A stretch of DNA of 43,735 nt from a virus (lineage: Duplodnaviria > Caudoviricetes): IMG/VR virus record IMGVR_UViG_3300017778_002624, positions 1 through 43,735 of that record; one strand, written 5' to 3'. Shown here one piece after another: positions 7,688 through 39,593 of the stretch. The notes beneath the pieces are model-generated. The model had not been told where the DNA came from. It made no database searches and saw only the letters and a program-made list of their open reading frames with translations. The position numbers were made by a program, and so were the translations under genes. Positions within the stretch are counted from its first letter, which is position 1; every line of letters begins with the position of its first letter.

Positions 7688-8032
7688 ATGCCTACCGCCA
7701 CCATCAACATCGGCCTCGCCATCGGCGACCGCCTCGACGCCATCACCGAGGAGCGCGCTCTCGAGGCGCTCCTCGCCCACACCGGCGACCGCCCCATCAC
7801 CTACGCCGTCGTCCAGAGCACCACCGAGCGGACGCTGGTGGCGGTGCTGGAGGAGGCGGCCACCGTCGGCGCTCTCTGGGCGCTGTGCGAGGAGTTGGAG
7901 CAGGACTGCATCGCCCAGCAGGTCGAGGGCCAGCCGGGCCAGCTCGTCGGCCCTCGCGATCACGAGTGGGGTCCGTTCGACCCGACCCAGTTCATTAGCT
8001 GGGACGAAGTCGTGGCGCGAGGCGCTGCCTGA
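7688..8032 (+). CDS. Hypothetical acidic protein
   Basis: Strong RBS; LEQDCIA..G.LVGP...WGPFDP motif. Confidence 0.75.
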   Translation: MPTATINIGLAIGDRLDAITEERALEALLAHTGDRPITYAVVQSTTERTLVAVLEEAATVGALWALCEELEQDCIAQQVEGQPGQLVGPRDHEWGPFDPTQFISWDEVVARGAA

Positions 8033-8382
8033 TGAGCAAGCCCTTCACCACCCTCGACGACCAGATCGTCGACCGCTTCGGCACCGTCTGGACAATCGCG
8101 CAGGCCGAGGCCCGGCTGCACCTGATCGCCGACCTGCTGGCCGACCCCTCCGAGACCGAGGGCTGCGCCAAGATCGGGCTGACGCGCTTCGCCGCGCTGG
8201 CCGCCGCGATCCGCACCGCGAAGGCCTTCGCCTCCACCGTGACCCAGCCGCCCTATGAGCAGGGAGCTGCCGCCCACAGGGGCGGCCAGCCCCAGACCGA
8301 CAACCCCCACCCGGCAGGGTCGGTTCAGGCGCTCTCGTGGTTCAACGGCTGGCGCAGGGCAGAGTGGGAGGACGCCCGGTGA
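8032..8382 (+). CDS. Hypothetical protein with an Rmf/CrpP-like C-terminal motif
   Basis: PYEQGAAA..G.....NPH......W.NGW. Confidence 0.6.
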   Translation: MSKPFTTLDDQIVDRFGTVWTIAQAEARLHLIADLLADPSETEGCAKIGLTRFAALAAAIRTAKAFASTVTQPPYEQGAAAHRGGQPQTDNPHPAGSVQALSWFNGWRRAEWEDAR

Positions 8383-8665: not shown

Positions 8666-9153
8666 CCATCGGCAACGAGATCGAGGCCCTCGCCGCCCGA
8701 GTGGCAGAGGGGCTGGAGGATGCCGGTCAGGCCCGCCTCACCAAGGCGCACGTCAAGCGCACCTACGCCGAGGCCCTGATCCGTCAGGTCTCGGCCCGGC
8801 ACGGGGTCGCGGTTGCGGCTGTGCTGCGAAAGCACGAGGCCCGGCAGAAGCCGCACGTCGTCTCCGCTCGCGCCCAGATCGCCGCCCTCCTCTACGAGGC
8901 CGAGTACAGCTACCCGGAGATCGCGCGCCTGCTGGCGATGTCGCACCACAGTCAGGCCATGCGCGCCCGGCAGCAGCACATCGACCGGCTGGCCGGGGCC
9001 GACGTGACGGTCGACATCGAGACGGGCCGCATCGCCCAGTCGATGATCCGCAAGCACGGCCTCACCGTCCGTCAGGCCGCCGAGCGGCTCGACGTCTCGC
9101 CCCTGCGCCTGAAGGCGCGCCTGAGCACCCTGAAAGGAAAGAGCCATGACTGA
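8662..9153 (+). CDS. DnaA C-terminal-like HTH protein
   Basis: VVSARAQIAALL....YSYPEIARLL...HHS resembles DnaA domain IV; second HTH at the C-terminus. Confidence 0.65.
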   Translation: MTIGNEIEALAARVAEGLEDAGQARLTKAHVKRTYAEALIRQVSARHGVAVAAVLRKHEARQKPHVVSARAQIAALLYEAEYSYPEIARLLAMSHHSQAMRARQQHIDRLAGADVTVDIETGRIAQSMIRKHGLTVRQAAERLDVSPLRLKARLSTLKGKSHD

Positions 9154-9619
9154 GAAACTGTTGCCCTGTCCGTTTTGTGGCGTGGCCCCAACCCCCTATC
9201 GCGGCGAGGTCATCGTCACGGTTGGCTGTGACAACAACGAATGCCCAGCCCGCGAGTGCTATTGCTCGATGCCCCTCGCCTACGAAACCGAAGCCATCGC
9301 AGCATGGAACCGCCGCACCCCTGCACCAGAGGGGGAGGCGGTGGCTGCCCTTCGCGCTCTAGTCCGCGATTGCCTTGCCAACGACTTCAACGAACTGTGG
9401 GACAGCTACACCGCTGCACAGGCCACGCTCGCAGCATCCCCTGTCGTTCCGGTAGGGAGGGAGGATATTGAAGTCGTGGCCGAGTGGCTGGAAATCGCCA
9501 AGGAGACGCCGAAACCGCTGCACAGCAGCCTAAACTATGTGCCGGTATGCCCGTCAGAGATTGAGGCCATCGAACGCATCCTCGCAGCCCTTGGCACGAA
9601 GGGGGCCGATCATGACTGA
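9146..9619 (+). CDS. Lar-like (restriction alleviation family) zinc-finger protein
   Basis: LLPCPFCG..C....C...AIAAWNRR signature; AT-richer codons. Confidence 0.65.
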   Translation: MTEKLLPCPFCGVAPTPYRGEVIVTVGCDNNECPARECYCSMPLAYETEAIAAWNRRTPAPEGEAVAALRALVRDCLANDFNELWDSYTAAQATLAASPVVPVGREDIEVVAEWLEIAKETPKPLHSSLNYVPVCPSEIEAIERILAALGTKGADHD

Positions 9620-24157: not shown

Positions 24158-24749
24158 ACCGGCCACCCTGATAATGATTTCGACGGCGATGGCTGCCGCC
24201 GGGTCAGCCGTGCAAGGCTACTCGGCCTACACAGGGGCGATGTACGCCTCTGGCGTCGCCGAGAACAACGCCGCCCTCTCGCGCGAGCAGGCCGCCGACG
24301 CTATCCGCAGGGGCGAGGACGAGCAGCAGAGGAAGTGGCGAGAGATCAGCCAGATCAAGGCCGCCCAGATCGCAGGCATGGCCGCCTCCGGCGTCGACAC
24401 CAGCTTCGGTTCGGCAGCCGACATGATCGGTGACACGGCGGTGCTCGGCACCGAGGACGTCTCGATCATCGCTGAGAACGCCGCCCGCGAGACGCGGGGC
24501 TTCCACATTCAGGCCCAGAACTTCAACAACGAGGCTGGTGCCAAGAAGCGCGAGGCCTACGCCGGTGCCGTCTCCACCGCCTTCGACATCGGCTCCACCA
24601 TCATGGGTGGGGCCTCGCAGATGCAGGGCCTCAAGCTGCCGAAGACCGGCGGCTCCGTCGGCCCCATGAAGACCCCCTACATCAACACCGGGGGCGGCTT
24701 CCGTGGTGGCCGTGACCGGCCCATGCCCATGTTCGGTGGAGGCCGCTGA
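24150..24749 (+). CDS. Internal virion/ejection protein (T7 gp14-like)
   Basis: GTG start MCEP; A.DA..RG, AASGVD...GSA motif. Confidence 0.75.
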   Translation: MCEPATLIMISTAMAAAGSAVQGYSAYTGAMYASGVAENNAALSREQAADAIRRGEDEQQRKWREISQIKAAQIAGMAASGVDTSFGSAADMIGDTAVLGTEDVSIIAENAARETRGFHIQAQNFNNEAGAKKREAYAGAVSTAFDIGSTIMGGASQMQGLKLPKTGGSVGPMKTPYINTGGGFRGGRDRPMPMFGGGR

Positions 24750-26974
24750 TGGCATCCGTCACCGTCTACTCCCAGACCGAGCGGCTCGCGCCGGTCACCA
24801 CCGCCAAGCAGCAGATGGTCTCCGGCGGCTTCGGCGAGGGGATCGGCGAGAGCGTCCAGCGCGCCGGTGGTGCGGTCGGCCAGTACGCCAAGGCCAAGGA
24901 CGCCTACAACGCCCGCGTCGAGGAGGCGGGCGTCATGGAGCTGGACACCCAGTTCTCCGAGCGCGCCCGCGAGATTGAGCGTGGCTTTCTGGCCCAGAGC
25001 GGGCGCAATGCGATTGACGCCCAGACCGAGACGGATGAGGCCTACCGCCAGCTAGAGGCTGAGTTCCTCGAGATGGGGTCCACCACCCCCCGTCAGGCCC
25101 TCATGATGCAGGCCCAGCTCAACCGCCGCAGGGAGAACTGGGCCGGTCGGCGGGACGGCCACGTCGCCCGCGAGACCGAGGTCTGGCAGGTCGGTGTCGA
25201 GGCGTCCTCCCTGACCGCCGCGATCCGTGAGGTGATCGACACGCCGCCCGGCTCGGCAGAGCGGACGTCCGGCTTCCTGCTGGTCGGGGCGCGTCTGGAC
25301 GACATCGCCCGCCGTCGGGGCTGGAGCGCCGAGGAGCGCGCGGAGAAGGGGTTTGCCGCCTTCTCCGACATCCACCTGACCACCATCGACGACATGAGGA
25401 ACAGCGACAACGCCGAGGGCGCGCTGGCCTACTACGACGAGTTTGAGGACGCCATCGACCCGACCAAGCGCACCGATCTGCGCCGGGCGACGGAGGAGGA
25501 CTACTGGACGCAGGACGCTCTCGCAGCCGCCGAGGGCGACCTGACGGGCGGCGAGGATGAGACCTACGACGTCGACCCCGGCGACGGCTCTGGCACGCGG
25601 CAGGTCAGGGCGGTCTCGCCGGTGTCGGCTGAGGTCAACTCTCGCTTTGGGGCCATGCGCGCCAGCGGGCCTCACGGCGGCACTGACTATCTGGCCCCTG
25701 AGAACACTCCGGTCCGGTCGATGCTTCCGGGCGTGGCGACCATCAAGCGCCAGCTGGGGCAGGCGGGCCTCTACGTCGAGGTAGACCACGGCAATGGGCT
25801 GGTCTCGCAGTATATGCACCTGAACCGGACCAACATCCGAGACGGCCAGCGCGTCGACGCGGGGACGGTAATCGCCCTGTCCGGGGGGCGGGCCGGGACC
25901 GCGAACGCGGGCAACAGCGAAGGCCCCCACCTCCATGTATCAGTGAAGCGGAACGGCCAGAACGTGGACCCGGAGGGCGTCATAGGCGGCGACCAAGAGG
26001 TTGGCGGCTCGGGAAGAAACGCGCCGAGAGGCCCGAGCTTCACGACGGCGCAGGACGTCGAGGACTGGGCTGAGGCCCGTAGCGGCGGCAACGCCCGACG
26101 CTACGCCATCAACCTTGCGGCAGGCATGGCCGTGCTCAATCGTGAGCGAGGCATCCGCACCGACCGCGAAAATGAGGGCGACCGGGCGGCGAACGAGTGG
26201 CGGGCGGCCAATCCGGGCGCTCTGTGGTCGTCCGCGCCCACCAGCATCCGCAACGGCGCTTCGCCGAGCTATCGTGCCCGCGAGGCCGAGCAGGAGCACA
26301 ACCAAGCAGAGGCAGACGCCAGAGCTGCGGGGGCCGACCGGGCCGTGGGCGACACGGTCTATCTCGACCTCTTGGACCTCGCGGCGAGTGACCCGCAGGA
26401 GTTCCTGCGCCGCAACCCGGACGACGTCCGCTCGATCATCACGCCGGGCCAGTACGCCACCCTCCGGCAGAAGGCGTCGTCGATCCGCAATGGGGACAAC
26501 TCCTCCCAAAACATCGACCTGATCCGCCCTGAGATGCGCGCGGCACTCAGCAGCGCAGGCTTTCAGGTCGAGCCATCAAGGATGGAGGAGGCGGATGCGC
26601 GAGCAGCCGCCGACCTGTCGGAGTATGTCGAGAGCTTCGCCGCCCGCCACCTCGCATCGAACGGCACCCCGGCCACGGTGGCCGATCTGCGCGGCGCATA
26701 CCGCACGGGCACGGCCCTGCTGAGGACCAGCGACGGGCGTCAGGTGATGGCGGCGTCGGCGCGGAGCTTGGGCGTGCTGCCGTCATCGGCACCGCGCACT
26801 CCGGCCCGCCGAGGCGTTGCCGAGCCGCCGCGCGTCGAGGGCTTCGCCATCGAGCGCCGTCACCTCAACTGGCTTCGGAACCGTTTCCGCGCAGAGGGGG
26901 TTCCCAACCCCACTCAGCGTCAGATAGACAACGCCTACGCCGCCGCCCGCAGAGCAGGGCAGCTTCCCGAATAG
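24749..26974 (+). CDS. Internal virion/ejection protein with an M23 (LytM) peptidoglycan peptidase domain
   Basis: HGGTDY (HxxxD), HGNGLVSQYMHL and GPHLH (HxH) at ~25620-25980 within a helical scaffold. Confidence 0.85.
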   Translation: MASVTVYSQTERLAPVTTAKQQMVSGGFGEGIGESVQRAGGAVGQYAKAKDAYNARVEEAGVMELDTQFSERAREIERGFLAQSGRNAIDAQTETDEAYRQLEAEFLEMGSTTPRQALMMQAQLNRRRENWAGRRDGHVARETEVWQVGVEASSLTAAIREVIDTPPGSAERTSGFLLVGARLDDIARRRGWSAEERAEKGFAAFSDIHLTTIDDMRNSDNAEGALAYYDEFEDAIDPTKRTDLRRATEEDYWTQDALAAAEGDLTGGEDETYDVDPGDGSGTRQVRAVSPVSAEVNSRFGAMRASGPHGGTDYLAPENTPVRSMLPGVATIKRQLGQAGLYVEVDHGNGLVSQYMHLNRTNIRDGQRVDAGTVIALSGGRAGTANAGNSEGPHLHVSVKRNGQNVDPEGVIGGDQEVGGSGRNAPRGPSFTTAQDVEDWAEARSGGNARRYAINLAAGMAVLNRERGIRTDRENEGDRAANEWRAANPGALWSSAPTSIRNGASPSYRAREAEQEHNQAEADARAAGADRAVGDTVYLDLLDLAASDPQEFLRRNPDDVRSIITPGQYATLRQKASSIRNGDNSSQNIDLIRPEMRAALSSAGFQVEPSRMEEADARAAADLSEYVESFAARHLASNGTPATVADLRGAYRTGTALLRTSDGRQVMAASARSLGVLPSSAPRTPARRGVAEPPRVEGFAIERRHLNWLRNRFRAEGVPNPTQRQIDNAYAAARRAGQLPE

Positions 26975-26981
26975 GACCGTC

Positions 26982-29900
26982 ATGGCACAAGACCCCTCGT
27001 TCAGCGTCGTCGAGGCCGACCGGCGCGCCGAGGAGCAGTACCGGCGTGCCGCGCAGCCCGCCGCCTACAGCGCCCTCGCTCAGGCAGCGACCACCTCACC
27101 GGAGGCGGCGGCCCTGCGCCAACGAGCGGCCACGATCCTCGGCACCATCCCTGCCGCGATCCAAGACGACCCCGACGCCGTAACCCGCGCGAGGGTTCAG
27201 GATGACATGGGGCGGCTGCCCGCCTTCCCTGCGACCATGAACTGGCTGGCCGACCCGGACAACGCCGCCGTCGCTCACGATCAGGTCGAGAGCCTCACCA
27301 CTCTCGAGGCCCTCCTCGCCCGCCCGGCTCCGACGTCGACCAACCCGTTCGACCGCCTGAACCAAGACGCCGCCTCCTTCTTGGGCCGCCCCGGCGTCGC
27401 CCGCCCCACGCCGGTCTTCCGCACCCGCGCGCCGCGCGTCGGCCTCGGGACGCGGATAGCTCGCTACGGCCTCAACCCGACGGCCAACGTGGGGGAGCTG
27501 TTCGCTGCGGCTGGTGATCTGGGCCGGGACGTCATGGCGGGCCTCGGCCAGCCTCTGGCGAGCACCGTCGAGGGCGTCGGCGTCGAGGCCCAACTGACGG
27601 GCGGCGCGCCACGGCTGATGCCCACGCTGATGAGCCTTGCCCGTCCGGGCGGCCTGAACAACCCGATGGCGCAGATCGACATTGGCCGGTACTTGGCCGA
27701 CGAGGTGCTCATCGCCCTTGGGCTGGGAGACAGCGTCGAGGAGACGCGCGCGCGCGTGCGAGAGACCGGCGTCGGCATCGAGGCCGCCGGTAAGTCGATG
27801 GGGATCGGCGCGCGGAACTGGCGCGGCACGCTGACCGACGACGACATCCAGCAGATCATCGCCTCGGGCAACTCCGACCGCATCCTGCCCGACCGCCAGA
27901 CCGAGACCGGGCTGGTAGGGGATGTGGCGCAGGGTGTCGGACAGGTCGGGGGAACCATCCTGATCTCGACCGCGACGCGCGGCACCCTGACGATGCCCTC
28001 CCTCTACGCGCAGGGCGTCGCGCAAATGAACACCCGTGTCGAGGCCGACATGGCGCAGGACGGGCGCACCGAGTATTCGGAGCGGGACCGTCAGGCGCTG
28101 CGAGCTGGCGGTGCGGTGACCGCGATCTCCGAGCGACTGGGTCTGGACGCCATCCTCGGCAAGCTGCCGAAGCCGATCCAAGACCGGATCAAGGGCCGCC
28201 TCTCCGACATTCTGGTTGCAGGCTTCGGTGAGGGCGCGTCAGAGGTCGCCGAGGGCGTCGGCCAGAACGCGGCGGCCATGACCCTGCTGGACGAGGACAC
28301 CGGCCTTTTCGAGGGCACGGTCGAGGGCGGCACGGTCGGCGCGCTCGTCGGCTCGATTGCCCGGATGCTCGTCCTGACGGCAACGCCCGGTCGCCAGTAC
28401 ACCGAGGATCAGGCCCGCGCCGAGGCCGCCGAACCGGCGGCGGTGCGCCTCGACAACCTTGTGGACATGGTTGCGCGCAACACCCTGCTGAACCGCACGC
28501 CGGAGCGGCTGCGGAACTTCCTGACGGGGGTGTCGGGCGACGACAACATCTACCTGCCCGCAGAGGCCGCCATCACCTTCTTCCAGTCCTCGCCAGAGGC
28601 TGAGGCGCTCCTCGACGAGCTGGACATCCGCGACCAGTACGAGGCCGCCCAGATCGGCGACACGCCCATCGCGATCCCGAAGGCCGCCTACCTGATGGCC
28701 GCCGCCAAGAACCCCGACCTGCACCCCACCATGCGCGGCGTGCTTCAGGACGGCCTCGGCGCTGCCTCCATCGCTGAGGCCGAGGAGTTCAAGAGGAACG
28801 GCGCGGCCAAGCTGGCCGAGGAAATGGACGCCGCCATCGCCAAGGCCGAGCAGGAGGACGCCGCCGACAACCCGGTGCGGGCCGTCGAGGCCGAGGTCTT
28901 CAGCCAGCTTCGCGCGAGCGGCTACACCGTCGACGCGGCGCGCCTTCTGGCCGCCTACACCGCCAACCTGTCTAGGGTCGAGGCGGCCAACAACCCCGAC
29001 CTATACCCCGACGCGATGGCCGCCTACCGCGACGCAGGCCTCTCGATCCGCGCCGCCTTCCCTGCAAGCCTGCGCCAGCCTGAGCGGGCCGCCGCCGTGG
29101 TCGATGCGTTCGTCCGTGGCCGGGCGAAGCCTGCCTCCTCGCTGGCCGAGTTCGTCAGCCAAGACGGCGGGATGTTCGACACCGGCGGCCAGCTCGCAGC
29201 GATGGGCGCTGACCGCTGGCACCGGGGCAAGGTGGGCAAGGGCAGGCTGGTCGTACCGGATACGTTCAGCGCGACCGGCCCGATGCCTGCCGATCTCGCC
29301 GACCGCCAGCCGGAGCAGGTGCTCGCCCGCGCTGTGGCCGCTGGCTACCTGCCGGAAGGCTCGACCGTCGACGACCTGATGGCTGCCCTGAAGGCCGACA
29401 TCAAGGGCAAGAAGGGCAAGGCTGCCGCTCCGGCGTTCGACCCCGCCGCCCCTGAGAACGCGCAGGCCCTCGGCGATCTGGAGGGGCTGCTGGCCGATCT
29501 GGACATCGACCCGAACACCGCCACGCCCGAGGAGATCAGGGCGGCGCTCGACCGGGTGGCGGCTGCGCCGGACGTGTCGCCCGCGCAGGTCTTCGAGCAG
29601 AGCAAGGCGGCCACCCGCGCTCTGGCGCAGGACTACAAGGCGATGGTCGGCAACACCGAGCCGGAGTTCGTCGGGACGGTGCAGCCGGTACTGGAGGACA
29701 TGATCCAGATCGCCGACGCGCTGGAGGTGGCTGAGCACGCGCCGAACGACCCGGCGGTGGTCAAGTCCTACAGGGTGCTGATCGACCAGACCATCGAGCA
29801 GTTCCTCCTGCTTGGCGACCTGAAGATCGAGGCGTGGCGCGGCGAGGGGCAGCCCTACGCCGACAGCAAGGCCATGCTCGCCGACATCCGTAACAACGGC

Positions 29901-32900
29901 CACTTCTGGTTCTTCCTGACGGAGAACGGCTTCGGCGACGAGGCTGGCGTCGACACCAGCGCCGGTCACCCGATGATGGAGAAGACCGCCCTCCGGCTGG
30001 ACGACGGCACCGAGCTGATCGCCAACGACGTCTTCCGTGTCGTCCACGACATCTTCGGCCACGGCCAGCAGGGCTTCGGCTTCGGCCCCGTCGGCGAGCT
30101 GAACGCCTACCTCGAGCACGCCGCGATGTACTCGCCGGAGGCCCGGCCTGCGCTCGCCGCCGAGACGGCCATGCAGAACGCATGGGTCAACTTCGGCCCG
30201 CACCTGCGGCGCGAGGACGGCACCCTGCCGGTGCGCGGCGAGCCGGACTACATCCCGCTGGCCGACCGCCGCTTCGCCGATCAGAAGGCGTTCGTCGCCA
30301 CGCCGGAGGTGCTGGAGCTGCTCCACAAGGGCGCGAAGGCGAAGGCTGCCTCGGAGGCGAGCGCCGACGCCAAGCCGGTCCAGAAGGCGCTCGATGCCAT
30401 CAAGGCCCTCGGCGAGGCCAACCCGCTGAACGAGCGCGAGACGGTGGTAGAGGGCGGCGGCCTCACGGTGCGGGCGCAGGGCGACAAGCTGTTCGTCAGC
30501 GGCCTGCGCGCCATCGAGAAGGGTGGGGGCCGCCGCGCGATGCAGGCCCTGATCCGCGTCGCCGACGAGAACGGTGTCGTCATCGAGCTGTGGCCGGTGC
30601 CGGGCGATGCGCCTGCCGGGAAGACGATGACGCAGGAGGCCCTGCGGTCGTGGTACGAGGGCCTCGGCTTCACGGCGTCCGGCTCCAACTACATGAGCCG
30701 ACGCCCGACCGTGAAGATGAAGCTCGGCGGCGGGATGAGGACGGTTACCCTCAATCAGTCCGACGCCGCCCCGACCGAAGCCGCCATAGAGGCTCGCGCC
30801 AAGGAAATCTCTGCCGAGAGCATGAAGCTGCCCGGCAACAACTACATCGGTCTGGGGCAGGCCGCAGTGATGGCTCGCGCGGAGCTGGAGGGGGCACCGC
30901 CGCCGGTTGCTATGACCCGCCCGCCGGTCAACCCGGACGGCACCATTACCCTGACGCACTACAGCGTTGAGGCCGACCTGACCGAGACCGACCCCACCAA
31001 GTGGGGCCGGAGCGGGAACTTCCTGCCGCGCTCAGAGCGCAACATGATCTCGTCGCACCTGCCGCGCACCTACTTCGGGATCGGCGTCGGCCAGCCGGGC
31101 GGCTACCGCCCTGAGTTCGCGGACCGCACGGTCTACACCACCGACATCGATGCCAGCCGCCTGTACGACGCCGCTGCCGACCCTGACGGCTTCCGCGATA
31201 ACCTCGACGGCGTGGCGCAGGGCGACCGCATCAACGCCATCGAGCGCCAGATCGCCGAGAAGTACGACGGCTACTGGCTGAAGAACGAGCTGGGCATGAC
31301 AGCCACGCTGTTCAAGCCGGTGGCGGTGGTGAGGGAGGGGGCCGGTCGCGGCGGCCCGCCCAGCAAGATCGAGTGGACCGAGGTTAATGAGTGGGAGAAG
31401 GGCGCGCCGCCCGAAGTCGAAAGCCTGATCGCGGGCTTCATCGGAGGCTCTGCCGACGCCGTCGCGAACGGCCTAGAGTTCGGGGTGATGGACAACAGGC
31501 CGCTCGATGCGGTGGTGACTGAGGGCGCGACCGGCGAGGCGCTGGACCTGCGGAAGAAGATGGACGCCGCCTTCGCGCCTATGCGGGCGATGCTCCGCGC
31601 CAAGTTTGGCGGGACCGTGCAGGCCTACCGTGTTCAATCAGACCTTGAGCCGGAGAGCGCAAACAACATCAAGCACAGCGGCCCTGATGCCGAGCGTCGG
31701 GCCTTCTCGTTCACCACCAGCCGGGAGTTCGCTGAAGACCTCGCGGGCAAGTTCAAGGTCGGCAAGCAGTTCAGCGAGGAGACTATCGCTGAGGCCGAGC
31801 GCGTCTTTGCTGAGACGGGCCGCTATGACGTCCGCGACAACCTGTGGCTGGAGCTGGAGACCTTCAGCGGCACACGGTACGACAACGGCGAGCCGTTCAC
31901 TGCTCAGAGCATCAATGTCATGCGCGGCGACGGCTTCCAGTACGACGTGGACAGCGTGCGCGCCTACTTCGAGCGGGTGAACGAGGACATCGCCGAACGG
32001 CAGGCGCTGCTGGCCGAGAGGCTCTCGAAGATCGTCACCGTCGATGTCCCGATCAACAGGGTCGTCTGGATGTCCGACCGCTTCAATCAGCAGGAGCTGA
32101 TCGTCGCCATGACGCCGGAGGAGGCGGCGGTGATGGCGCGGCGCGAAAGGATCGCGTTCGCCGAGCGCGACCGCGTCTTCTACCAGTCCGCCACCCCCGA
32201 CGAGCACCCCGACCGGATCAGCACTCGGCTGCCGACGACCAAGGGCGCGAAGGAGGACGCGGTCGCCAACAAGCTCACGGTCTCGACCGAGGCGATGGGC
32301 AAGAAACCGTCGGTGCTGGAGCACAACGCCAAGCTGGTCTCCAGCTACCCCGGCGTCCGCATCAAGGCTCGCTCGGCGCAGGGCCGCGCCCGCGCCTTCA
32401 TCGACCACGTCAAGGCCAACCTGCTGGCGCTGTTCGACCGTGTGCCCGCCGAGACCCGCGAACGGTCCAAGCAGTGGTACGACGGTGCCCGCGCCCTGAC
32501 CACCGTCTGGGCTGGCCGCTACGGCCTGCCAGATCGGTCGGTCGCAGCTGTGCTCGCCGCCCTCTCGCCGCAGAAGGACTGGTACCAGAACGTCTCGCTG
32601 GCCGAGCGTGTGCTGGATGTCTGGTCGAAGCGGCAGGACTACGTCTACGACGAGGCGATGGAGGCGAAGGGCGCGGAGCTGTTCGCCAAATACCCCGACC
32701 TGTTGGCCAAGCTGCGCGGGAAGTCTCTGGCCCAGCTGGAGCACCTGACGGAGAAGGCGGCGTTCGTCCGCATCTACGACCAAGCCCACAACCCTCGCGG
32801 CTTCCGCATTGCCAGCCCCGAGGGGCAGTTCCTCGGTGAGCCGGGCGGCAACGTGGCGTGGGGGTCTCTGGTCGAGATCGCCAAGGCAGTCTCCGTTCTG

Positions 32901-35900
32901 GAGGGGCAGAGCTTCGAGAACGTCTCGTTCGCGCTGGGCGACCGGCACAAGGTCCGTAACTTCTACAACAACATCATCTCTCCCCGGTCAGCCGAGGGCG
33001 ACGTGACCATCGACACCCACGCGGTGGCCGCTGGCCTGCTCCGCGCGCTGTCCGGCTCGGACGCCGAGGTCTTCCACAACTTCGGCTCCAGCCCGATGGC
33101 GGCCAAGCAGCCGGACGGCTGGGTGCCCGCCAAGAACGCCAACGAGTTCGGGGTGTCCGGCACCTACGGCTTCTATGCTGACGCCTACCGAGAGGCGGCG
33201 GCAGAGCGCGGCGTGTCGGCGCGGGAAATGCAGTCGATCACATGGGAGGCTGTGCGCGGCCTGTTCGGTGCGAAGTTCAAATCCAACAAGAAAAATGTCA
33301 AGGCGATCAATGACCTGTGGCTTGCCCACGGCAAGGGTGACGCCACCCTAGAGGAGACAATCAATGCGGTCATCGAATACGCAGGCGGCATCGCCCAGCC
33401 AAGCTGGGACGGACCCGGTGCTGGACTGGCTGTCGCAGAACGGCAGGCCAGCTACGATGGAGAACTATCTCGGGCTGGCCTACCCGGACGCGACGCCGGA
33501 CGCGGAGCAGATGGCCAGCCTGCCGGAGACGTTGATCCGGTAGCGCGGGTCTTCTACCAGTCCGAACCCGCCCGGCCAGCCCCCCCGTTCTTCAGCGCGC
33601 TGACCCGCGCCGTCGAGAACGAAGGCCCCGAGCAGGCGACCCCCGCAGAGTGGAAGCGGTGGCTGATCGAGCCGGAGAGCGTCAAGCGGGGCGTGGTGCG
33701 CGACAAGGCCACCAACAAGCCGATGGTGGACGCTGACGGCAACCCCGTGATCTCGGAGACGGTGATCCCGGCCAAGCCCCGCGCTGGCGTGAAGATGGAC
33801 GAAATCTTCTGGACCGGCACGGGGACGTGGCTCGACGCGCTGGCCGATCCCGACGAGCTGTCCCAGACCTTCGCCCGCGAGGCGGGCCAGATCGACGCCG
33901 ACGGCAACATCACCCGCCAGACGTTCCTCGACTTCCTGAAGGCCGGTGGCCTGCGGATGGACGAGGTGGTGCTGGGCGCTTTCGATCAGGCCACCGTGGA
34001 TGCGCGGGTTGAGGAAATACTCGACGAGAAAGTCGACGAGGCCGTGGCTGATTGGGACGGCGGCAGCGTCTACATCGGTAGGGTTTCGGACGACGAGGAC
34101 GGCCCAACCACCGGGTGGGGCCTGTTTGCTGATGGTCGCCTGATTAGCGAAGACTTCTACGACAGCGAGGAGGCGGCACAAGAGGCTGCGGACGAGGCCA
34201 ATCAGGAGGAGGAGGCCGACGCCATCCGGCGCGTCCGCAACGACTGGCGTGGGCTGGCTATAGATCAAGCCGAGCGCGAGGGTGTCGGCGGCGAGCAGAC
34301 CAAGTTCGCCGACTGGGCCACCAGCGGTGCCGTCGGCACCTACCGCGAGGTGCTGTTCCGCCTGCCCGGCATCGACGGCCCAGAAACCCACTGGGACCAG
34401 AGCAACGTCGTCGCCCACGTCAGGCTGACGATCCGCCTCGACGCCGAGGGCAACCGCGTCCTGTTCATCGAGGAGGTCCAGTCTGACTGGCACCAGAAGG
34501 GGCGGGATCAGGGGTATCAGGCACCCTTTGATCCAGTGGAGCAGGCCGCCGCCAAGGCGGCGGCGTCTGAGACGAACAGGCTCCTTCTGGCCGCGCGCCG
34601 CCCGTTTGTCGCGGCGACGCAGGCCTCGCTGGCGCAGAGCATTGCTGAGACCGAGGACGCCATCCGTCAGGCCGAGGAGGCCGGGATGTCGCAGAGCTTG
34701 CGCGACAACCTGCGCGACGGCGTCAACATCCTGAAGAGTGCAGCGGCCAATCTCGCGAGCAGTGTCGATCTCAATGCCGAGCTGGGCATCACCGGGGGGG
34801 CGGACAGCACACTGATCGCCGAAAACCTTTACCGGCGTTCGCAGCGTGGCGACCTGATGATGCGCCGCGACGACGCGCTGAAGGCGTCCTACGACGCAAT
34901 GCTGGCGGCGGGCCTCGCCCACAACGAGGCCTCGCAGCGCCTCCAAAACGCCCGCAATCCCAAGGGCATCCCCGACGCCCCCTTCCGCACCTCATGGCCC
35001 GCGCTCGTCATGAAGCGGATGATCCGCTGGGCGGTCGACCACGGCTACGAGCGGGTGGCGTGGACGACGGGGGACCAGCAGGCGGATCGGTACAATCTGT
35101 CGAGCGCGGTGGGCTGGATCGAGACGATCAAGACCGGCGATGGCCGCGTCGCTTACAATGTCCAAAGCCCCGGCGCGCGCAGCGTGATCCGCGAGCACGG
35201 CGAGGCCATGAACGGCTGGGTCATCCTGACCCGCGAGAAGGCTATGGAGGTCTTCGGGCAAGACCTCGGCGGGCGCACCTATGACGGCGCACGCGACCAG
35301 AACCCCGTCCGCTTCGACGGCGACGACCTGAAGATCGGCGGCGAGGGGATGCGCGGCTTCTACGACCGCAACCTCGTCAACATCACGAACGACATCGTGA
35401 AGCGGTATGGGGTGAAGGTCGGCATGATCGACATGGTTCACCCGACCCTGAAGAAGTATCGAGAGCTTCAAGGCAGGATCGACGAGACCAACGCCCAGAT
35501 GAAGGCCATCGCCGCCAGCCAGAAAGGCAAGATGGACGCGGTCGCCGACCTCCCCTTCGAAGAGCAGGACGACATCCTGAAGGCGGACCCTGAGTTCGTG
35601 GCCGCTCAGACAGAGCACACGACGCTCCGCATCCGGCTTGACGACCTCCAGCGCCAGCAGCGCCAGACCCTGCCTGAGACCGGCGCGTCCTCCTTCGGCG
35701 ACCAGCCCGGCTTCACCATCACGCCCGCCCTGCGCGACGCGGCCATGTCCGGCTTCGCCCTGTTCCAGAAGGTCGCCGACGAGCCGCGCGCCCAGATCGC
35801 CTTCAGCCAGTCAGGCGCGTTCATCACCCTGTTCCAGAAGCGCGACATGACCTCGCTGTTCCACGAGCTGGGGCACCTCTCGCTGGAACGGCTGGTGAAG

Positions 35901-38900
35901 AACGCGACCGGGCCGAACGCCAGCGAGAAGTCCAAGCGCGATCTCCAGATCGTCCTCGACTACCTGAACGTCCGCGACCCTGCCGACATCGGCGTGGATC
36001 AGCACGAGCTGTGGGCGCAGACCCAAGAGCGATACCTGATGGAGGGCAAGGCCCCGTCGCTGGAGCTGCGCTCCGCTTTCAGGACGATCAAGGGCTGGTT
36101 CATGTCGGTCTACAAGAGCCTGACCCACCCGCAGGTGAACGTGCCGATCACCGACGAGGTGCGCGGCGTCTTCGACCGGATGATGGCTACCGACGAGGAG
36201 ATCACGGCGGCCCGCAACCAGCTCAAGCTGGAGGCCGGGTACACCGACGCCGCTGAGGCCGGGATGAGCGAGCAGCAGTTCGCCGACTACCAGCGCCTTG
36301 TGGAGCGGGCGCGCACCGACAGCGAGGACGAGCTGCTCAAGAAGCTGACTGCCGCCATCCGTCGCGAGCGGACGGCTGAGTGGAAAGCTGAGGCCGCCGA
36401 GCTTCGCCCTGATGTGGCCGCCGAGGTCGACCAGCAGCCCGCCATCTCGGCCATGAACTACCTGCGGGACAACAAGGTCTCGCTGAACCGCGAGGACGTT
36501 GCCCGTCTGCTGGAGGACGACGCTGCCGTCGCCGCCCTGCCCAAGACGGTGCCGCCGCTCACATCCAAAAACGGGCTGCACCCGGACGTGATCGCCGAGG
36601 CCACCGGCTTCGGGTCTGGCGCGGAGCTGCTCGCCGGGCTGGCGGCACTGGAGGCCGAGCGTCAGGGGATGCTGGCCACCGGCGACAAGCGCAGCGTCCG
36701 GTCGAAGCGGATCGACGACGAGGTCACGGCCCGCCTGCGAGAGGTCCACGGCGACCCCTTCACTGACGGCTCGATTGAGGCCGAGGCGATGGCTGCCGTC
36801 CACAACGAGAGGCAGGCCGAGGTGCTTCACCTTGAGCTGTCGGTCGCCACCCGCCGTGTCGGCGGCGTGCCGCCCCCCATCAACGCGCTGCGGGAGTGGG
36901 CCGCTGAGAAGATCGGCAGCCGCCCGGTCAGCGAGGCGCGCTCGGGCAAGTACCTGCGCGCCGAGCGCAAGGCCGCCAACGCCGTGCAGAAGGCCGCCGC
37001 CAGCCGGGACTTCGCCGAGGTCGCCCGGCAGAAGCAGGCCCAGACCATGAACCACCTGCTCTATGGAGCGGCCCGCCGGGCCGAGGACTTCGTCGAGGCG
37101 GCGGTGAAGCGCATGAGGAAGCTGGACAAGGCCCGCACCATCAAGTCGATGGATCAGGCCTATCTGGAGCAAATCCACGGCCTGCTGGAGGCCTTCGATC
37201 TGCGCGAGGTCAGCGGTCGGCAGGTCAAGAGGCGGCAGTCTCTGGCCGAGTTTATCGCGGCTCAGGAGGCGCAGGGCAAGACCATCGTCCTGCCCGCCAA
37301 GCTGGCCGAAATGGCCGCCCGTCAACACTACTCGACCCTCACGGTCGACGAGCTGAAGGCGCTCGACGACACCGTCCGCGCGCTGGCCAAGCTGGGCCGC
37401 CTGAAGAAGCAGTTGACGGTGAAGGGCGAGCAGCGCGATCTCGACGCCATTGCCGATCAGGCCCAGAAGTCTGCCGACCACCTGCCCACTATCCACAAGG
37501 ACGTGGGCCTGCGACCGAAGGACCAGTGGTTCGCCAAGCTGGCCGACTTCGGCGTCGCCTTCGAGGCGTCGATGGTCAAGGCGCAGGAGTGGTTCCGGCT
37601 GCTCGACGGCGGTGACCCGGCGGGCATCTTCTCGACCGTGCTCGACCTCCCGGCCAACGCCGCCTTCGTCCGCATGGAGGAGCTGAACGCCAAGTTCTTC
37701 GAGGCCATCGTTGCCTCTGAGGCCCTGATCCCGAAGGCGGTCAAGGCGAAGTGGATGGACTTGGTCAGCGACCATCCGTTCATGAACCCCTCGACCGGCG
37801 AGCCGCTCGGCGGGGTGCAGCGCCGAGACCTCATCGCCATCGCGCTCCAGACCGGAAACCTGTCGAACTTCGAGATCATGGCGAAGGGCTGGGGCATCAT
37901 CCCGCGAGACGCCGAGATGGAGGCGATCACAGCCGCTCGCACCGCGCTGGTCGCGTGGCTGGACACCAAGCTGGACGCGACCGAGTGGGCGTATGTCCAG
38001 ACGTGGTGGGACGGCTTCGAGGGCAACAAGGCCGACTACTTCGCCACGGCCCGCGAGATCAACGGCTACGCACCGGAGGCGGTCGAGGCCGCCCCCCTGA
38101 CCACCAGCGCCGGTGAGCTGGCCGGAGGCTATGTGCCGGTCTCCTACGACGGTCGCTTCGACCGGCTCCAGCAGGAGCGGGACGCTGCCGACACTGCCGA
38201 TATGTTCGGCGGTCTGGGGCGCTCCAGCCCCCGTCCGGACAACGGCTCAACGAAGGAACGGACGGGCTACAGCGGCCCCCCGCTGCTGAACCTCGACGCC
38301 ATCGCCAACGGCGCGCGCAAGCACATCCGGTACATCGCCTACGCCAAGTACATCGACAACAGCCTGAAGTTCCTGCGCCACCCGGTCGTCGCGAAGACTG
38401 TGCGGGACAAGCTCGGCGAGCAGGCCCGGAAGGGAATGGAGGACTGGCTCGGCTCGCAGGTCAAGATGGACACGCCGCTGGACCCGAACGCCAACCCGTT
38501 CATCAAGGCCGCCCGCTGGTCGCGGACCAACATGACCTCTGCCCTGCTGCTCGGCAGCGTCAACGTGCTGCTGGCCCAGCCGTCAGGTCTGGCGGTCTCG
38601 GTCGCGACCCTCGGCCCGCGCCGTCTGGCCAGCGGGATGATGAAGGCCGCCAACCTGATGGCGACCGGCAGGTTCAACGAGTTCGTCTTCTCGCGGTCCA
38701 AGATCATGAAGGACCGCTTCGAGGGGGCCAGCTTCGAGCGCGACATCCGGCTGGCCCTGACCAACATGGTCGGGAGCAAAGACCTGCGGGACAGGATCAC
38801 CTACCTCTGCGCTCGAGCGATCTCGGCCATCGACGTCTTTGTCGTGTCGGGGCCGACATGGATCGCGGCCTACGACCGCGCTCTGGCTGATGGCCGGGAT

Positions 38901-39593
38901 GAGGAGACGGCGGTCTATCTCGCCGACAAGGCCGCCGAGGGCGCTCAGGGGTCGGGCCGGGCCTCTACCCTTTCCGCGATCCAGCGGAACAACGAGGTGA
39001 CGAAGATGGTCACCTTCGCCTACGGCTGGGCGAACGCCCTCTACAACATCCAGCGCGGTGCCGCGACCGATCTGAAGAACGGCGTGAACCGCACTCACGC
39101 CGCCTACCAGCTCGCTGCCGTCATGCTGCTGCCCGCCATCGCCGACGCCCTCATGTCTGGCGACTGGCCGGACTTCGAGGACGAGGAAGACCCGGTCATG
39201 GCCATCATGGCGTGGTTCGGGCGCAACGTCCTGTTCGGTGCCTTCTCGGGCATCCCGGTGGTCCGCGACTTCGCTGGTGCCGCCGAGCGCAAGGCTGCCG
39301 GGAAATACGCCGGGCCGGTCGGGCAGACGGCGATGGGGCGGATCGGCGACGAGTTCGGCAAGCTGGGGCAGGATGCGTGGGACTTGGCCTTCAGTGAGGA
39401 CGGTGAGGTCTCGCGGCGCTGGCCGTCGCACGCCATCAACTCCGTCGGCTTCGCGCTCGGGCTGCCGGGCACAGCACAACTTGCGCGGTCGGTGAACTAT
39501 GCTACGGACGTCGCCGACGGAGAGCAGAACCCTGATGGGGTCATCGACTGGATGTCGGGCCTCGCCAAGGGGCCGCAGGAGGATCAGAAGTAA
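26982..39593 (+). CDS. Giant 4203-aa polyvalent internal virion/ejection protein
   Basis: Uninterrupted ORF at the T7 gp16 position; LPD22-like N-terminus (WLADPDNAAVAHD), several enzyme-like cassettes, HELGH zincin motif at aa 2961-2965. Confidence 0.9.
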   Translation: MAQDPSFSVVEADRRAEEQYRRAAQPAAYSALAQAATTSPEAAALRQRAATILGTIPAAIQDDPDAVTRARVQDDMGRLPAFPATMNWLADPDNAAVAHDQVESLTTLEALLARPAPTSTNPFDRLNQDAASFLGRPGVARPTPVFRTRAPRVGLGTRIARYGLNPTANVGELFAAAGDLGRDVMAGLGQPLASTVEGVGVEAQLTGGAPRLMPTLMSLARPGGLNNPMAQIDIGRYLADEVLIALGLGDSVEETRARVRETGVGIEAAGKSMGIGARNWRGTLTDDDIQQIIASGNSDRILPDRQTETGLVGDVAQGVGQVGGTILISTATRGTLTMPSLYAQGVAQMNTRVEADMAQDGRTEYSERDRQALRAGGAVTAISERLGLDAILGKLPKPIQDRIKGRLSDILVAGFGEGASEVAEGVGQNAAAMTLLDEDTGLFEGTVEGGTVGALVGSIARMLVLTATPGRQYTEDQARAEAAEPAAVRLDNLVDMVARNTLLNRTPERLRNFLTGVSGDDNIYLPAEAAITFFQSSPEAEALLDELDIRDQYEAAQIGDTPIAIPKAAYLMAAAKNPDLHPTMRGVLQDGLGAASIAEAEEFKRNGAAKLAEEMDAAIAKAEQEDAADNPVRAVEAEVFSQLRASGYTVDAARLLAAYTANLSRVEAANNPDLYPDAMAAYRDAGLSIRAAFPASLRQPERAAAVVDAFVRGRAKPASSLAEFVSQDGGMFDTGGQLAAMGADRWHRGKVGKGRLVVPDTFSATGPMPADLADRQPEQVLARAVAAGYLPEGSTVDDLMAALKADIKGKKGKAAAPAFDPAAPENAQALGDLEGLLADLDIDPNTATPEEIRAALDRVAAAPDVSPAQVFEQSKAATRALAQDYKAMVGNTEPEFVGTVQPVLEDMIQIADALEVAEHAPNDPAVVKSYRVLIDQTIEQFLLLGDLKIEAWRGEGQPYADSKAMLADIRNNGHFWFFLTENGFGDEAGVDTSAGHPMMEKTALRLDDGTELIANDVFRVVHDIFGHGQQGFGFGPVGELNAYLEHAAMYSPEARPALAAETAMQNAWVNFGPHLRREDGTLPVRGEPDYIPLADRRFADQKAFVATPEVLELLHKGAKAKAASEASADAKPVQKALDAIKALGEANPLNERETVVEGGGLTVRAQGDKLFVSGLRAIEKGGGRRAMQALIRVADENGVVIELWPVPGDAPAGKTMTQEALRSWYEGLGFTASGSNYMSRRPTVKMKLGGGMRTVTLNQSDAAPTEAAIEARAKEISAESMKLPGNNYIGLGQAAVMARAELEGAPPPVAMTRPPVNPDGTITLTHYSVEADLTETDPTKWGRSGNFLPRSERNMISSHLPRTYFGIGVGQPGGYRPEFADRTVYTTDIDASRLYDAAADPDGFRDNLDGVAQGDRINAIERQIAEKYDGYWLKNELGMTATLFKPVAVVREGAGRGGPPSKIEWTEVNEWEKGAPPEVESLIAGFIGGSADAVANGLEFGVMDNRPLDAVVTEGATGEALDLRKKMDAAFAPMRAMLRAKFGGTVQAYRVQSDLEPESANNIKHSGPDAERRAFSFTTSREFAEDLAGKFKVGKQFSEETIAEAERVFAETGRYDVRDNLWLELETFSGTRYDNGEPFTAQSINVMRGDGFQYDVDSVRAYFERVNEDIAERQALLAERLSKIVTVDVPINRVVWMSDRFNQQELIVAMTPEEAAVMARRERIAFAERDRVFYQSATPDEHPDRISTRLPTTKGAKEDAVANKLTVSTEAMGKKPSVLEHNAKLVSSYPGVRIKARSAQGRARAFIDHVKANLLALFDRVPAETRERSKQWYDGARALTTVWAGRYGLPDRSVAAVLAALSPQKDWYQNVSLAERVLDVWSKRQDYVYDEAMEAKGAELFAKYPDLLAKLRGKSLAQLEHLTEKAAFVRIYDQAHNPRGFRIASPEGQFLGEPGGNVAWGSLVEIAKAVSVLEGQSFENVSFALGDRHKVRNFYNNIISPRSAEGDVTIDTHAVAAGLLRALSGSDAEVFHNFGSSPMAAKQPDGWVPAKNANEFGVSGTYGFYADAYREAAAERGVSAREMQSITWEAVRGLFGAKFKSNKKNVKAINDLWLAHGKGDATLEETINAVIEYAGGIAQPSWDGPGAGLAVAERQASYDGELSRAGLPGRDAGRGADGQPAGDVDPVARVFYQSEPARPAPPFFSALTRAVENEGPEQATPAEWKRWLIEPESVKRGVVRDKATNKPMVDADGNPVISETVIPAKPRAGVKMDEIFWTGTGTWLDALADPDELSQTFAREAGQIDADGNITRQTFLDFLKAGGLRMDEVVLGAFDQATVDARVEEILDEKVDEAVADWDGGSVYIGRVSDDEDGPTTGWGLFADGRLISEDFYDSEEAAQEAADEANQEEEADAIRRVRNDWRGLAIDQAEREGVGGEQTKFADWATSGAVGTYREVLFRLPGIDGPETHWDQSNVVAHVRLTIRLDAEGNRVLFIEEVQSDWHQKGRDQGYQAPFDPVEQAAAKAAASETNRLLLAARRPFVAATQASLAQSIAETEDAIRQAEEAGMSQSLRDNLRDGVNILKSAAANLASSVDLNAELGITGGADSTLIAENLYRRSQRGDLMMRRDDALKASYDAMLAAGLAHNEASQRLQNARNPKGIPDAPFRTSWPALVMKRMIRWAVDHGYERVAWTTGDQQADRYNLSSAVGWIETIKTGDGRVAYNVQSPGARSVIREHGEAMNGWVILTREKAMEVFGQDLGGRTYDGARDQNPVRFDGDDLKIGGEGMRGFYDRNLVNITNDIVKRYGVKVGMIDMVHPTLKKYRELQGRIDETNAQMKAIAASQKGKMDAVADLPFEEQDDILKADPEFVAAQTEHTTLRIRLDDLQRQQRQTLPETGASSFGDQPGFTITPALRDAAMSGFALFQKVADEPRAQIAFSQSGAFITLFQKRDMTSLFHELGHLSLERLVKNATGPNASEKSKRDLQIVLDYLNVRDPADIGVDQHELWAQTQERYLMEGKAPSLELRSAFRTIKGWFMSVYKSLTHPQVNVPITDEVRGVFDRMMATDEEITAARNQLKLEAGYTDAAEAGMSEQQFADYQRLVERARTDSEDELLKKLTAAIRRERTAEWKAEAAELRPDVAAEVDQQPAISAMNYLRDNKVSLNREDVARLLEDDAAVAALPKTVPPLTSKNGLHPDVIAEATGFGSGAELLAGLAALEAERQGMLATGDKRSVRSKRIDDEVTARLREVHGDPFTDGSIEAEAMAAVHNERQAEVLHLELSVATRRVGGVPPPINALREWAAEKIGSRPVSEARSGKYLRAERKAANAVQKAAASRDFAEVARQKQAQTMNHLLYGAARRAEDFVEAAVKRMRKLDKARTIKSMDQAYLEQIHGLLEAFDLREVSGRQVKRRQSLAEFIAAQEAQGKTIVLPAKLAEMAARQHYSTLTVDELKALDDTVRALAKLGRLKKQLTVKGEQRDLDAIADQAQKSADHLPTIHKDVGLRPKDQWFAKLADFGVAFEASMVKAQEWFRLLDGGDPAGIFSTVLDLPANAAFVRMEELNAKFFEAIVASEALIPKAVKAKWMDLVSDHPFMNPSTGEPLGGVQRRDLIAIALQTGNLSNFEIMAKGWGIIPRDAEMEAITAARTALVAWLDTKLDATEWAYVQTWWDGFEGNKADYFATAREINGYAPEAVEAAPLTTSAGELAGGYVPVSYDGRFDRLQQERDAADTADMFGGLGRSSPRPDNGSTKERTGYSGPPLLNLDAIANGARKHIRYIAYAKYIDNSLKFLRHPVVAKTVRDKLGEQARKGMEDWLGSQVKMDTPLDPNANPFIKAARWSRTNMTSALLLGSVNVLLAQPSGLAVSVATLGPRRLASGMMKAANLMATGRFNEFVFSRSKIMKDRFEGASFERDIRLALTNMVGSKDLRDRITYLCARAISAIDVFVVSGPTWIAAYDRALADGRDEETAVYLADKAAEGAQGSGRASTLSAIQRNNEVTKMVTFAYGWANALYNIQRGAATDLKNGVNRTHAAYQLAAVMLLPAIADALMSGDWPDFEDEEDPVMAIMAWFGRNVLFGAFSGIPVVRDFAGAAERKAAGKYAGPVGQTAMGRIGDEFGKLGQDAWDLAFSEDGEVSRRWPSHAINSVGFALGLPGTAQLARSVNYATDVADGEQNPDGVIDWMSGLAKGPQEDQK
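32175..32190 (+). repeat. 16-nt direct repeat GTCTTCTACCAGTCCG (VFYQS), copy 1
   Basis: Identical to 33549-33564; related to 29589-29603 (VFEQS) and 30747-30761 (TLNQS). Confidence 0.85.
33364..33543 (+). CDS. Nested 59-aa gene in the +1 frame of the giant gene
   Basis: GAGGAGA RBS 6 nt before ATG; 51/59 codons end in G/C while 28/60 host-frame codons end in A/T; MRSSNTQAASPSQAGTDPVLDWLSQNGRPATMENYLGLAYPDATPDAEQMASLPETLIR. Confidence 0.75.
   Translation: MRSSNTQAASPSQAGTDPVLDWLSQNGRPATMENYLGLAYPDATPDAEQMASLPETLIR
33549..33564 (+). repeat. 16-nt direct repeat GTCTTCTACCAGTCCG (VFYQS), copy 2
   Basis: Identical to 32175-32190. Confidence 0.85.

Follow-up and report, generated by a model that had tools for sequence, protein, structure and literature searches.

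A conserved gene nested out of frame behind a predicted glycosylase-fold domain in a phage polyvalent protein, and its candidate role as an inhibitor of that domain

We identified a gene of 59 codons nested in the +1 frame of a giant phage polyvalent protein gene, at the end of a domain with a predicted DNA glycosylase/AP-lyase fold; judged by its conservation across relatives, this open reading frame (ORF) is a real conserved gene. The small acidic protein that it encodes probably binds and blocks the neighbouring glycosylase-fold domain, and the two would then form an effector-inhibitor pair. The window, by which we mean the whole stretch of DNA analysed (43,735 nucleotides), holds a complete phage record, which carries direct terminal repeats. 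Feature coordinates are listed in Table 1, and other loci carry numbers with the prefix L. Our literature searches returned no description of this domain-partner pair.

Table 1. Positions of the features discussed, in the window unless a locus number is given
Feature	Positions	Strand	Description and basis
Giant polyvalent protein gene	26982..39593	+	4203 aa; likely internal virion/ejection protein; LPD22, phrog_9880 C-terminus, gene order
VFYQS junction repeat (16 nt)	32175..32190 and 33549-33564	+	Within chance expectation
DUF7178-related domain	32202..33410	+	Host aa 1741-2143; predicted HhH-GPD glycosylase/AP-lyase fold; Pfam, AF2
Lys1990 (domain K250)	32949..32951	+	Start of second helix of helix-turn-helix; predicted nucleophile
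Asp2011 (domain D271), TIDTH motif	33012..33014	+	Caps helix 272-279; predicted catalytic Asp
Shine-Dalgarno (SD) GAGGAGA	33351..33357	+	6 nt before ATG 33364; same bases encode host Glu-Glu-Thr
Nested gene	33364..33543	+	ATG to TAG, 59 aa, frame +1 relative to giant gene; predicted inhibitor/partner
Host-frame Gly/Ala/Asp/Arg linker	33411..33548	+	Reads through nested gene; host-frame identity, stops in relatives
Opposite-strand partner	L216:5181-5357	-	Between portal and capsid genes
Opposite-strand partner	L220:4890-5090	-	
Opposite-strand partner	L229:1924-2103	-	

The carrier protein and its enzyme domain

Upstream of the giant gene lie genes for terminase, portal/adaptor, capsid and tail, two internal-virion genes and a peptidase-bearing gene. 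The 4203-aa protein has an LPD22 domain at aa 28-116 (46.3 bits against a Pfam cut-off of 28.6) and a C-terminus that matches phrog_9880. It is multi-domain, bears an LPD domain and is encoded among virion genes, as are the polyvalent proteins of Iyer et al. 2017, giant multi-domain LPD proteins of the virion module that are predicted to be injected with the DNA (PMC5512222, as far as its text was available); the structural-gene setting named in the original prediction was borne out by LPD22 and gene order. From its place after the two internal-virion genes, the protein is likely packaged and injected. Scans with Pfam, PHROG and NCBIfam models found no MuF domain in it. In most of 18 loci checked, the enzyme-domain gene likewise has portal, terminase, internal-virion or tail genes as neighbours.

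The gene before the giant gene (24749-26974) encodes an M23-type peptidase domain at aa about 284-420, and its product is probably an ejection protein that degrades the cell wall. No Pfam match was obtained for further domains of the giant protein, encoded at 29550-31350 and 33561-35759; its aa 871-1069 match phrog_3170, a family found again within or next to the enzyme gene in L003, L061 and L291. Among the small genes of the window are a segment resembling ribosome modulation factor (8032-8382; PF04957, 34 bits) and a Lar restriction-alleviation gene (9146-9619; PF14354).

The domain upstream of the nested gene matches DUF7178 (PF23802) in three stretches with 100 bits against a cut-off of 27, is about twice the length of that model, and overlaps the nested gene with its last 15 codons. 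Its AF2 model (pLDDT 94.6) predicts a two-lobed helical fold with a helix-hairpin-helix (HhH), and the top 20 rows of a VIA-align search comprised 18 DNA glycosylases and two queuine-salvage enzymes; the glycosylase-like character first read from the sequence is thus matched by the predicted fold. Nearest are the 8-oxoguanine glycosylases Ogg (TM1821, 3n0u) and AGOG (1xqp), which are repair enzymes, and a queuine-salvage hydrolase. In comparison with Ogg, AGOG and EndoIII of the HhH-GPD type, the phage domain has 9-14% identity, about 400 aa with insertions, and a place in a virion protein. Residues K250 and D271, 21 residues apart and invariant in 138 of 138 aligned domains, occupy secondary-structure positions in the AF2 model that correspond to what we take to be those of the HhH-GPD catalytic residues, and their predicted catalytic roles are assumed by analogy with EndoIII and OGG1. 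A lysine nucleophile is part of the mechanism described for bifunctional HhH-GPD glycosylases in the available part of PMC3260424. The domain is accordingly modelled as a predicted DNA glycosylase/AP lyase, which would make DUF7178 a candidate phage glycosylase.

Conservation of the nested gene and its product

The original prediction placed the 59-aa ORF at 33364-33543 with GAGGAGA 6 nt upstream, and both coordinates and SD proved correct, as did its count of 51 G/C-ending codons among the 59 of the nested frame. The 28 A/T-ending host codons across the overlap were likewise found again, out of 61 codons and not 60 as first given, and such codons are indeed rare elsewhere (456 of 4204 in the whole gene; binomial P 5e-12). 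Outside aa 2100-2200, no 61-codon window of the host frame has more than 18, so that the GC3 dip at the nested gene is the only one of its kind in the giant gene. Twenty-one out-of-frame ORFs of at least 40 aa lie on the + strand inside the giant gene; only 33364-33543 combines an SD with high nested GC3 (0.86 versus 0.54 in the host frame).

As predicted, 5 nt separate the nested TAG from the V codon that opens the second VFYQS. The proposal that enzyme and nested gene share a cassette bounded by this repeat did not stand: the 16-nt repeat (32175/33549) is the longest exact repeat of the giant gene, 16-mer repeats also arose in 75 of 200 codon shuffles, and FYQS follows the partner in one of 45 read-through cases, namely the window.

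As a single-sequence query the nested 59-aa product retrieved no match, and relatives were therefore collected through the enzyme domain. The close-relative set consisted of the best 80 of 599 viral loci with the domain, one of them (L052) cut at a contig end. A homologous small ORF followed the domain in all 79 evaluable loci and overlapped the domain end in frame +1 in 78 of these; the anticipated homologues just downstream of domains with ALSPQ/VTIDTH/QSITWE, nested or free-standing, were thus found. Conservation of the +1 ORF in relatives had been named beforehand as a point on which the prediction would stand or fall, and the ORF is conserved. In L006 the partner follows an inserted domain as a free gene, and in L293 it is likewise kept behind an inserted domain. 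The L006 insert (2400-2837) separates enzyme and partner, and a near-identical enzyme in L009 is without it; judged by eye from a motif, the insert may be ADP-ribosyltransferase-like.

Start signals were counted in 79 sequences (78 loci and the window) within the expected 24 codons. An ATG was present in 76 and an SD with a start codon in 75, compared with 0, 2, 8 and 15 of 79 in four control windows. Relative to the small gene, the host frame stops inside it in 20 of these sequences and shortly downstream in 42, stays open onward in 16, and is cut in one. Selection, which the original prediction proposed to compare in both frames, was assessed on pairs with both frames open and 70-98% DNA identity (50 distinct sequences; the pairs are non-independent): divergence at the three nested codon positions was 0.17/0.12/0.38, and amino-acid identity among close pairs was 75% in the nested frame versus 56% in the host frame. 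By this sequence comparison, selection acts mainly on the nested frame. The gene is present in GenBank phage LS06-2018-MD07 (OP947163; E 3.7e-6), where it is unannotated, having been missed because it lies inside a giant gene.

With a profile built from 37 members, 1,885 clusters (50% identity) were retrieved. The partner members tested fitted no model in Pfam, PHROG or NCBIfam, the 37 members gave no significant Pfam match, no sequence match to known DNA mimics was found, and recognition of the nested product by the ESM Atlas was low. The family core comprises residues 15-59, the first 14 residues being shaped by the overlap, and holds the conserved motifs D-P-V-L, P-x-T-R-E-N-Y-L, A-Y and A-E-x-E-x-x-L-P. 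Of 117 members, 94 have a negative net charge, and the family median is -5 (window copy, 59 aa: -4); for the C-terminal third the median is likewise -5, and E48 and E50 are conserved at 90% or more. The window copy deviates at two near-invariant positions, with M32 for R and M50 for E. One 190-aa protein (P0219) joins an enzyme C-terminus and a partner in one frame, as a real fusion or through a sequencing frameshift.

Arrangement, partner types and losses

In the reciprocal direction, the domain lay upstream in 73 of 74 loci retrieved with the partner protein, the 74th having just 36 nt of upstream sequence, and in 18 of 18 loci of a second partner-seeded scan; a partner without the domain was not found in phages in either evaluable set (73/73 and 18/18). 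A metagenome scan with a two-copy member returned four loci: one beside the domain, two orphans and a startless fragment. The orphans are a homologue of two tandem copies (L384:1531-2067) and one near a type I restriction specificity gene (L385:4001-4324), the fragment lies near DUF72 (L387:2593-2712), and the DNA of these three loci contains no domain. No further orphan copy occurred in 1,200 sampled bacterial genomes, which indicates that orphans are rare.

Addition of 29 genome loci and of three scans seeded by divergent domains gave a wider set of 381 loci, 380 of which have the domain on the + strand and 352 of which are long enough to judge, forming 169 groups at 90% identity. This set is non-random, as it was found partly through the partner and partly through partnerless queries; in it, a partner lies directly downstream of the domain in 141 of 169 groups, compared with 79 of 79 among close relatives. 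A window-family partner on the same strand is present in 113 groups, where it is nested in a gene that reads on (n = 45), nested in a short tail (n = 33), overlapping the stop (n = 27) or free-standing (n = 8). Frame +1 is used in 102 of the 105 overlapping or nested cases, and +2-frame copies exist. In three groups (L216, L220, L229) the partner is convergent on the opposite strand and touches the enzyme stop codon. The pair is present in two cultured strains, Jannaschia seohaensis DSM 25227 (L156) and Pseudofulvimonas gallinarii DSM 21944 (L160). That the partner can lie inside the host gene, overlap its end, stand alone, follow an inserted domain or occupy the opposite strand indicates that it acts as a separate protein. 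Copies on the opposite strand, free-standing copies and those behind an insertion rule out a frameshift product as well as a mere coupling device, and tie the protein to the enzyme.

Three other +1 partner types accompany 22 groups (11, 6 and 5 domains) and are acidic in 20 of 22; in three further groups we assigned single acidic +1 ORFs by eye. In comparisons with the window's family, HHalign (93%) showed the type of 5 to be a distant form; the similarity of the type of 11 lies mostly in the start, where the overlap constrains the sequence, and the type of 6 gave no match. Apart from the window's family, two unannotated families of acidic small proteins in frame +1 were observed just after the domain (L167, L177, L268-L298; and L171, L311-L330); outside the overlap they resemble that family little or not at all. 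In a midpoint-rooted FastTree phylogeny of 138 of the 169 domains, from which 31 close window-family members were omitted, each other partner type corresponds to one enzyme clade (support 1.0, 0.98 and 0.997). Since kin share labels, this mapping shows partner replacement along the history of the enzyme and not binding. No enzyme-partner covariation was detected beyond shared nucleotides (effective number 85, low power).

No partner lies near 28 of the 169 domains (90% clusters), and the group of 31 that contains these 28 retains K250, D271 and other core residues. Whole-record searches, in which the positive control was recovered, found no partner in eight of nine partnerless records, among them cultured phage CRP-738; the ninth is L216. 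The window-family profile found none in five of five incomplete genomes, two of which carry the type-of-11 partner, undetectable by that profile. Three of four GenBank phages with the domain, again including CRP-738, lack the partner family. Losses occurred in several separate clades, the largest of 15 (L163, L176, L190-L192, L206-L250), which implies that the enzyme is not always lethal without a window-type partner; the partner is common, not obligatory. In L163 and L176, the two of this clade that were read, the enzyme is directly followed by a further domain common to both (no Pfam match in L176), which could restrain the enzyme in cis.

Proposed function and alternatives

Under the effector-inhibitor reading, which we consider probable, both proteins would be made from the same late mRNA, and the acidic C-terminal AExE stretch would occupy the DNA-binding cleft of the enzyme in the manner of DNA-mimic inhibitors, protecting replicating phage DNA and the producer cell. 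The giant protein would be packaged and ejected without the inhibitor, left behind at packaging, and the enzyme would then act on DNA in the next cell, be it the host chromosome or the modified bases of a rival element. Nesting may have arisen through transfer of enzyme and partner as one unit into the interior of a polyvalent gene, whose own frame then became open across the partner to form a linker. Of the effector-immunity pair originally proposed, the pairing and the fold were upheld, and a strict toxin-immunity reading was not: an active toxin should never occur without its immunity, and for 28 of 169 intact domains no partner was detected; an unrelated or distant protector may exist for these. 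As the closest folds are those of repair enzymes and a queuine-salvage hydrolase, the enzyme may be benign.

A helper role is rather unlikely in our estimation. The small protein would then be a folding or packaging chaperone, or an activating or specificity subunit; the enzyme that it serves might be a benign one, packaged to repair oxidation damage in the ejected phage DNA. Tight linkage and clade-matched partner types are equally expected of a helper, the resemblance to 8-oxoguanine glycosylases and the intact partnerless enzymes fit a non-toxic enzyme, and P0219, if not a sequencing frameshift, is an in-frame fusion of enzyme tail and partner. Repeated loss argues against an essential subunit, however, orphans without the enzyme and an opposite-strand copy transcribed apart from the late operon fit a helper poorly, and the acidic tail suits cleft blockade. 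Less probable again is a DNA mimic directed at a host repair glycosylase or restriction enzyme and linked to the domain through a shared infection step. Size and acidity like those of p56, Ugi and SAUGI, as far as described in the sources available, would agree with it, and the orphans show that the partner can exist alone; yet in phages the partner never occurred without the domain in the evaluable loci, and its type changes with the enzyme clade, which together point to the phage's own enzyme as the target.

We regard as very improbable a programmed frameshift that would cut the giant protein short behind the enzyme, with the ORF as the tail of the resulting product. The prevalence of frame +1 and the fusion P0219 would be expected from such a product, but 75 of 79 sequences provide the ORF with an SD and a start codon of its own, a +1-frame stop directly precedes the ATG in L060 and relatives, and free-standing, +2-frame and opposite-strand copies exist. 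That a low-complexity linker gave rise to the ORF by chance, as the blank single-sequence query and low ESM Atlas recognition might suggest, has a negligible probability, given that the profile search yields 1,885 clusters and the ORF is conserved where stops close the host frame; this account is refuted by conservation, retention of SD and start, the size of the family and nested-frame selection.

An inhibitor of the phage's own enzyme resembles the toxin-immunity pairs of MuF proteins in temperate-phage head modules, whose cognate-specific inhibitors act by binding (Apk2/IapK; PMC12226406, available in part). As there, the enzyme domain resides on a virion-associated protein encoded among head genes, a small gene follows directly downstream, and partner types differ between enzyme clades. 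Unlike MuF pairs, the present one has no MuF domain, its glycosylase-fold enzyme is internal in a 4203-aa protein, its partner gene is hidden in another frame within the carrier gene, and its toxicity and binding are predictions. The available text of PMC5512222 describes no cognate inhibitor genes, nested genes or such a glycosylase domain, and its supplementary tables may list the domain under another name. According to the accessible part of bioRxiv 10.1101/2025.10.29.685425, antiphage Dag glycosylases are host defence HhH enzymes, of which the virion enzyme would be the phage-side counterpart. Like Ugi, p56 and SAUGI, as far as these are covered by the sources available, the partner is small and acidic with a proposed cleft-blocking mode; the target of those proteins is uracil-DNA glycosylase, an enzyme of another fold, which for the phage-encoded inhibitors is that of the host, whereas the partner here would block the phage's own HhH enzyme. 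In the lambda Rz/Rz1 spanins, Rz1, a lysis lipoprotein, is fully embedded in the +1 frame, and embedded, overlapped and separated forms occur across phages; the gene embedded here runs across a linker of an ejection-type protein, with one of whose domains it pairs.

The enzymes carried by polyvalent virion proteins should be dangerous to the producer cell, which raises the question of how they are restrained. This locus offers a candidate answer in a gene of 60 aa that is hidden from annotation and belongs to a family of 1,885 clusters without a profile model. More tentatively, glycosylases in ejection proteins may attack DNA, with their cognate inhibitors forming a hidden, polymorphic immunity layer encoded out of frame in the carrier gene, and resident prophages and some bacteria (the orphans) may use the same small proteins to disarm an incoming virion enzyme. 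If the small protein is an inhibitor, the pair would represent a new effector-immunity class and a route to find which polyvalent domains are toxic, and, if this holds true, the first inhibitor family for an HhH-type glycosylase.
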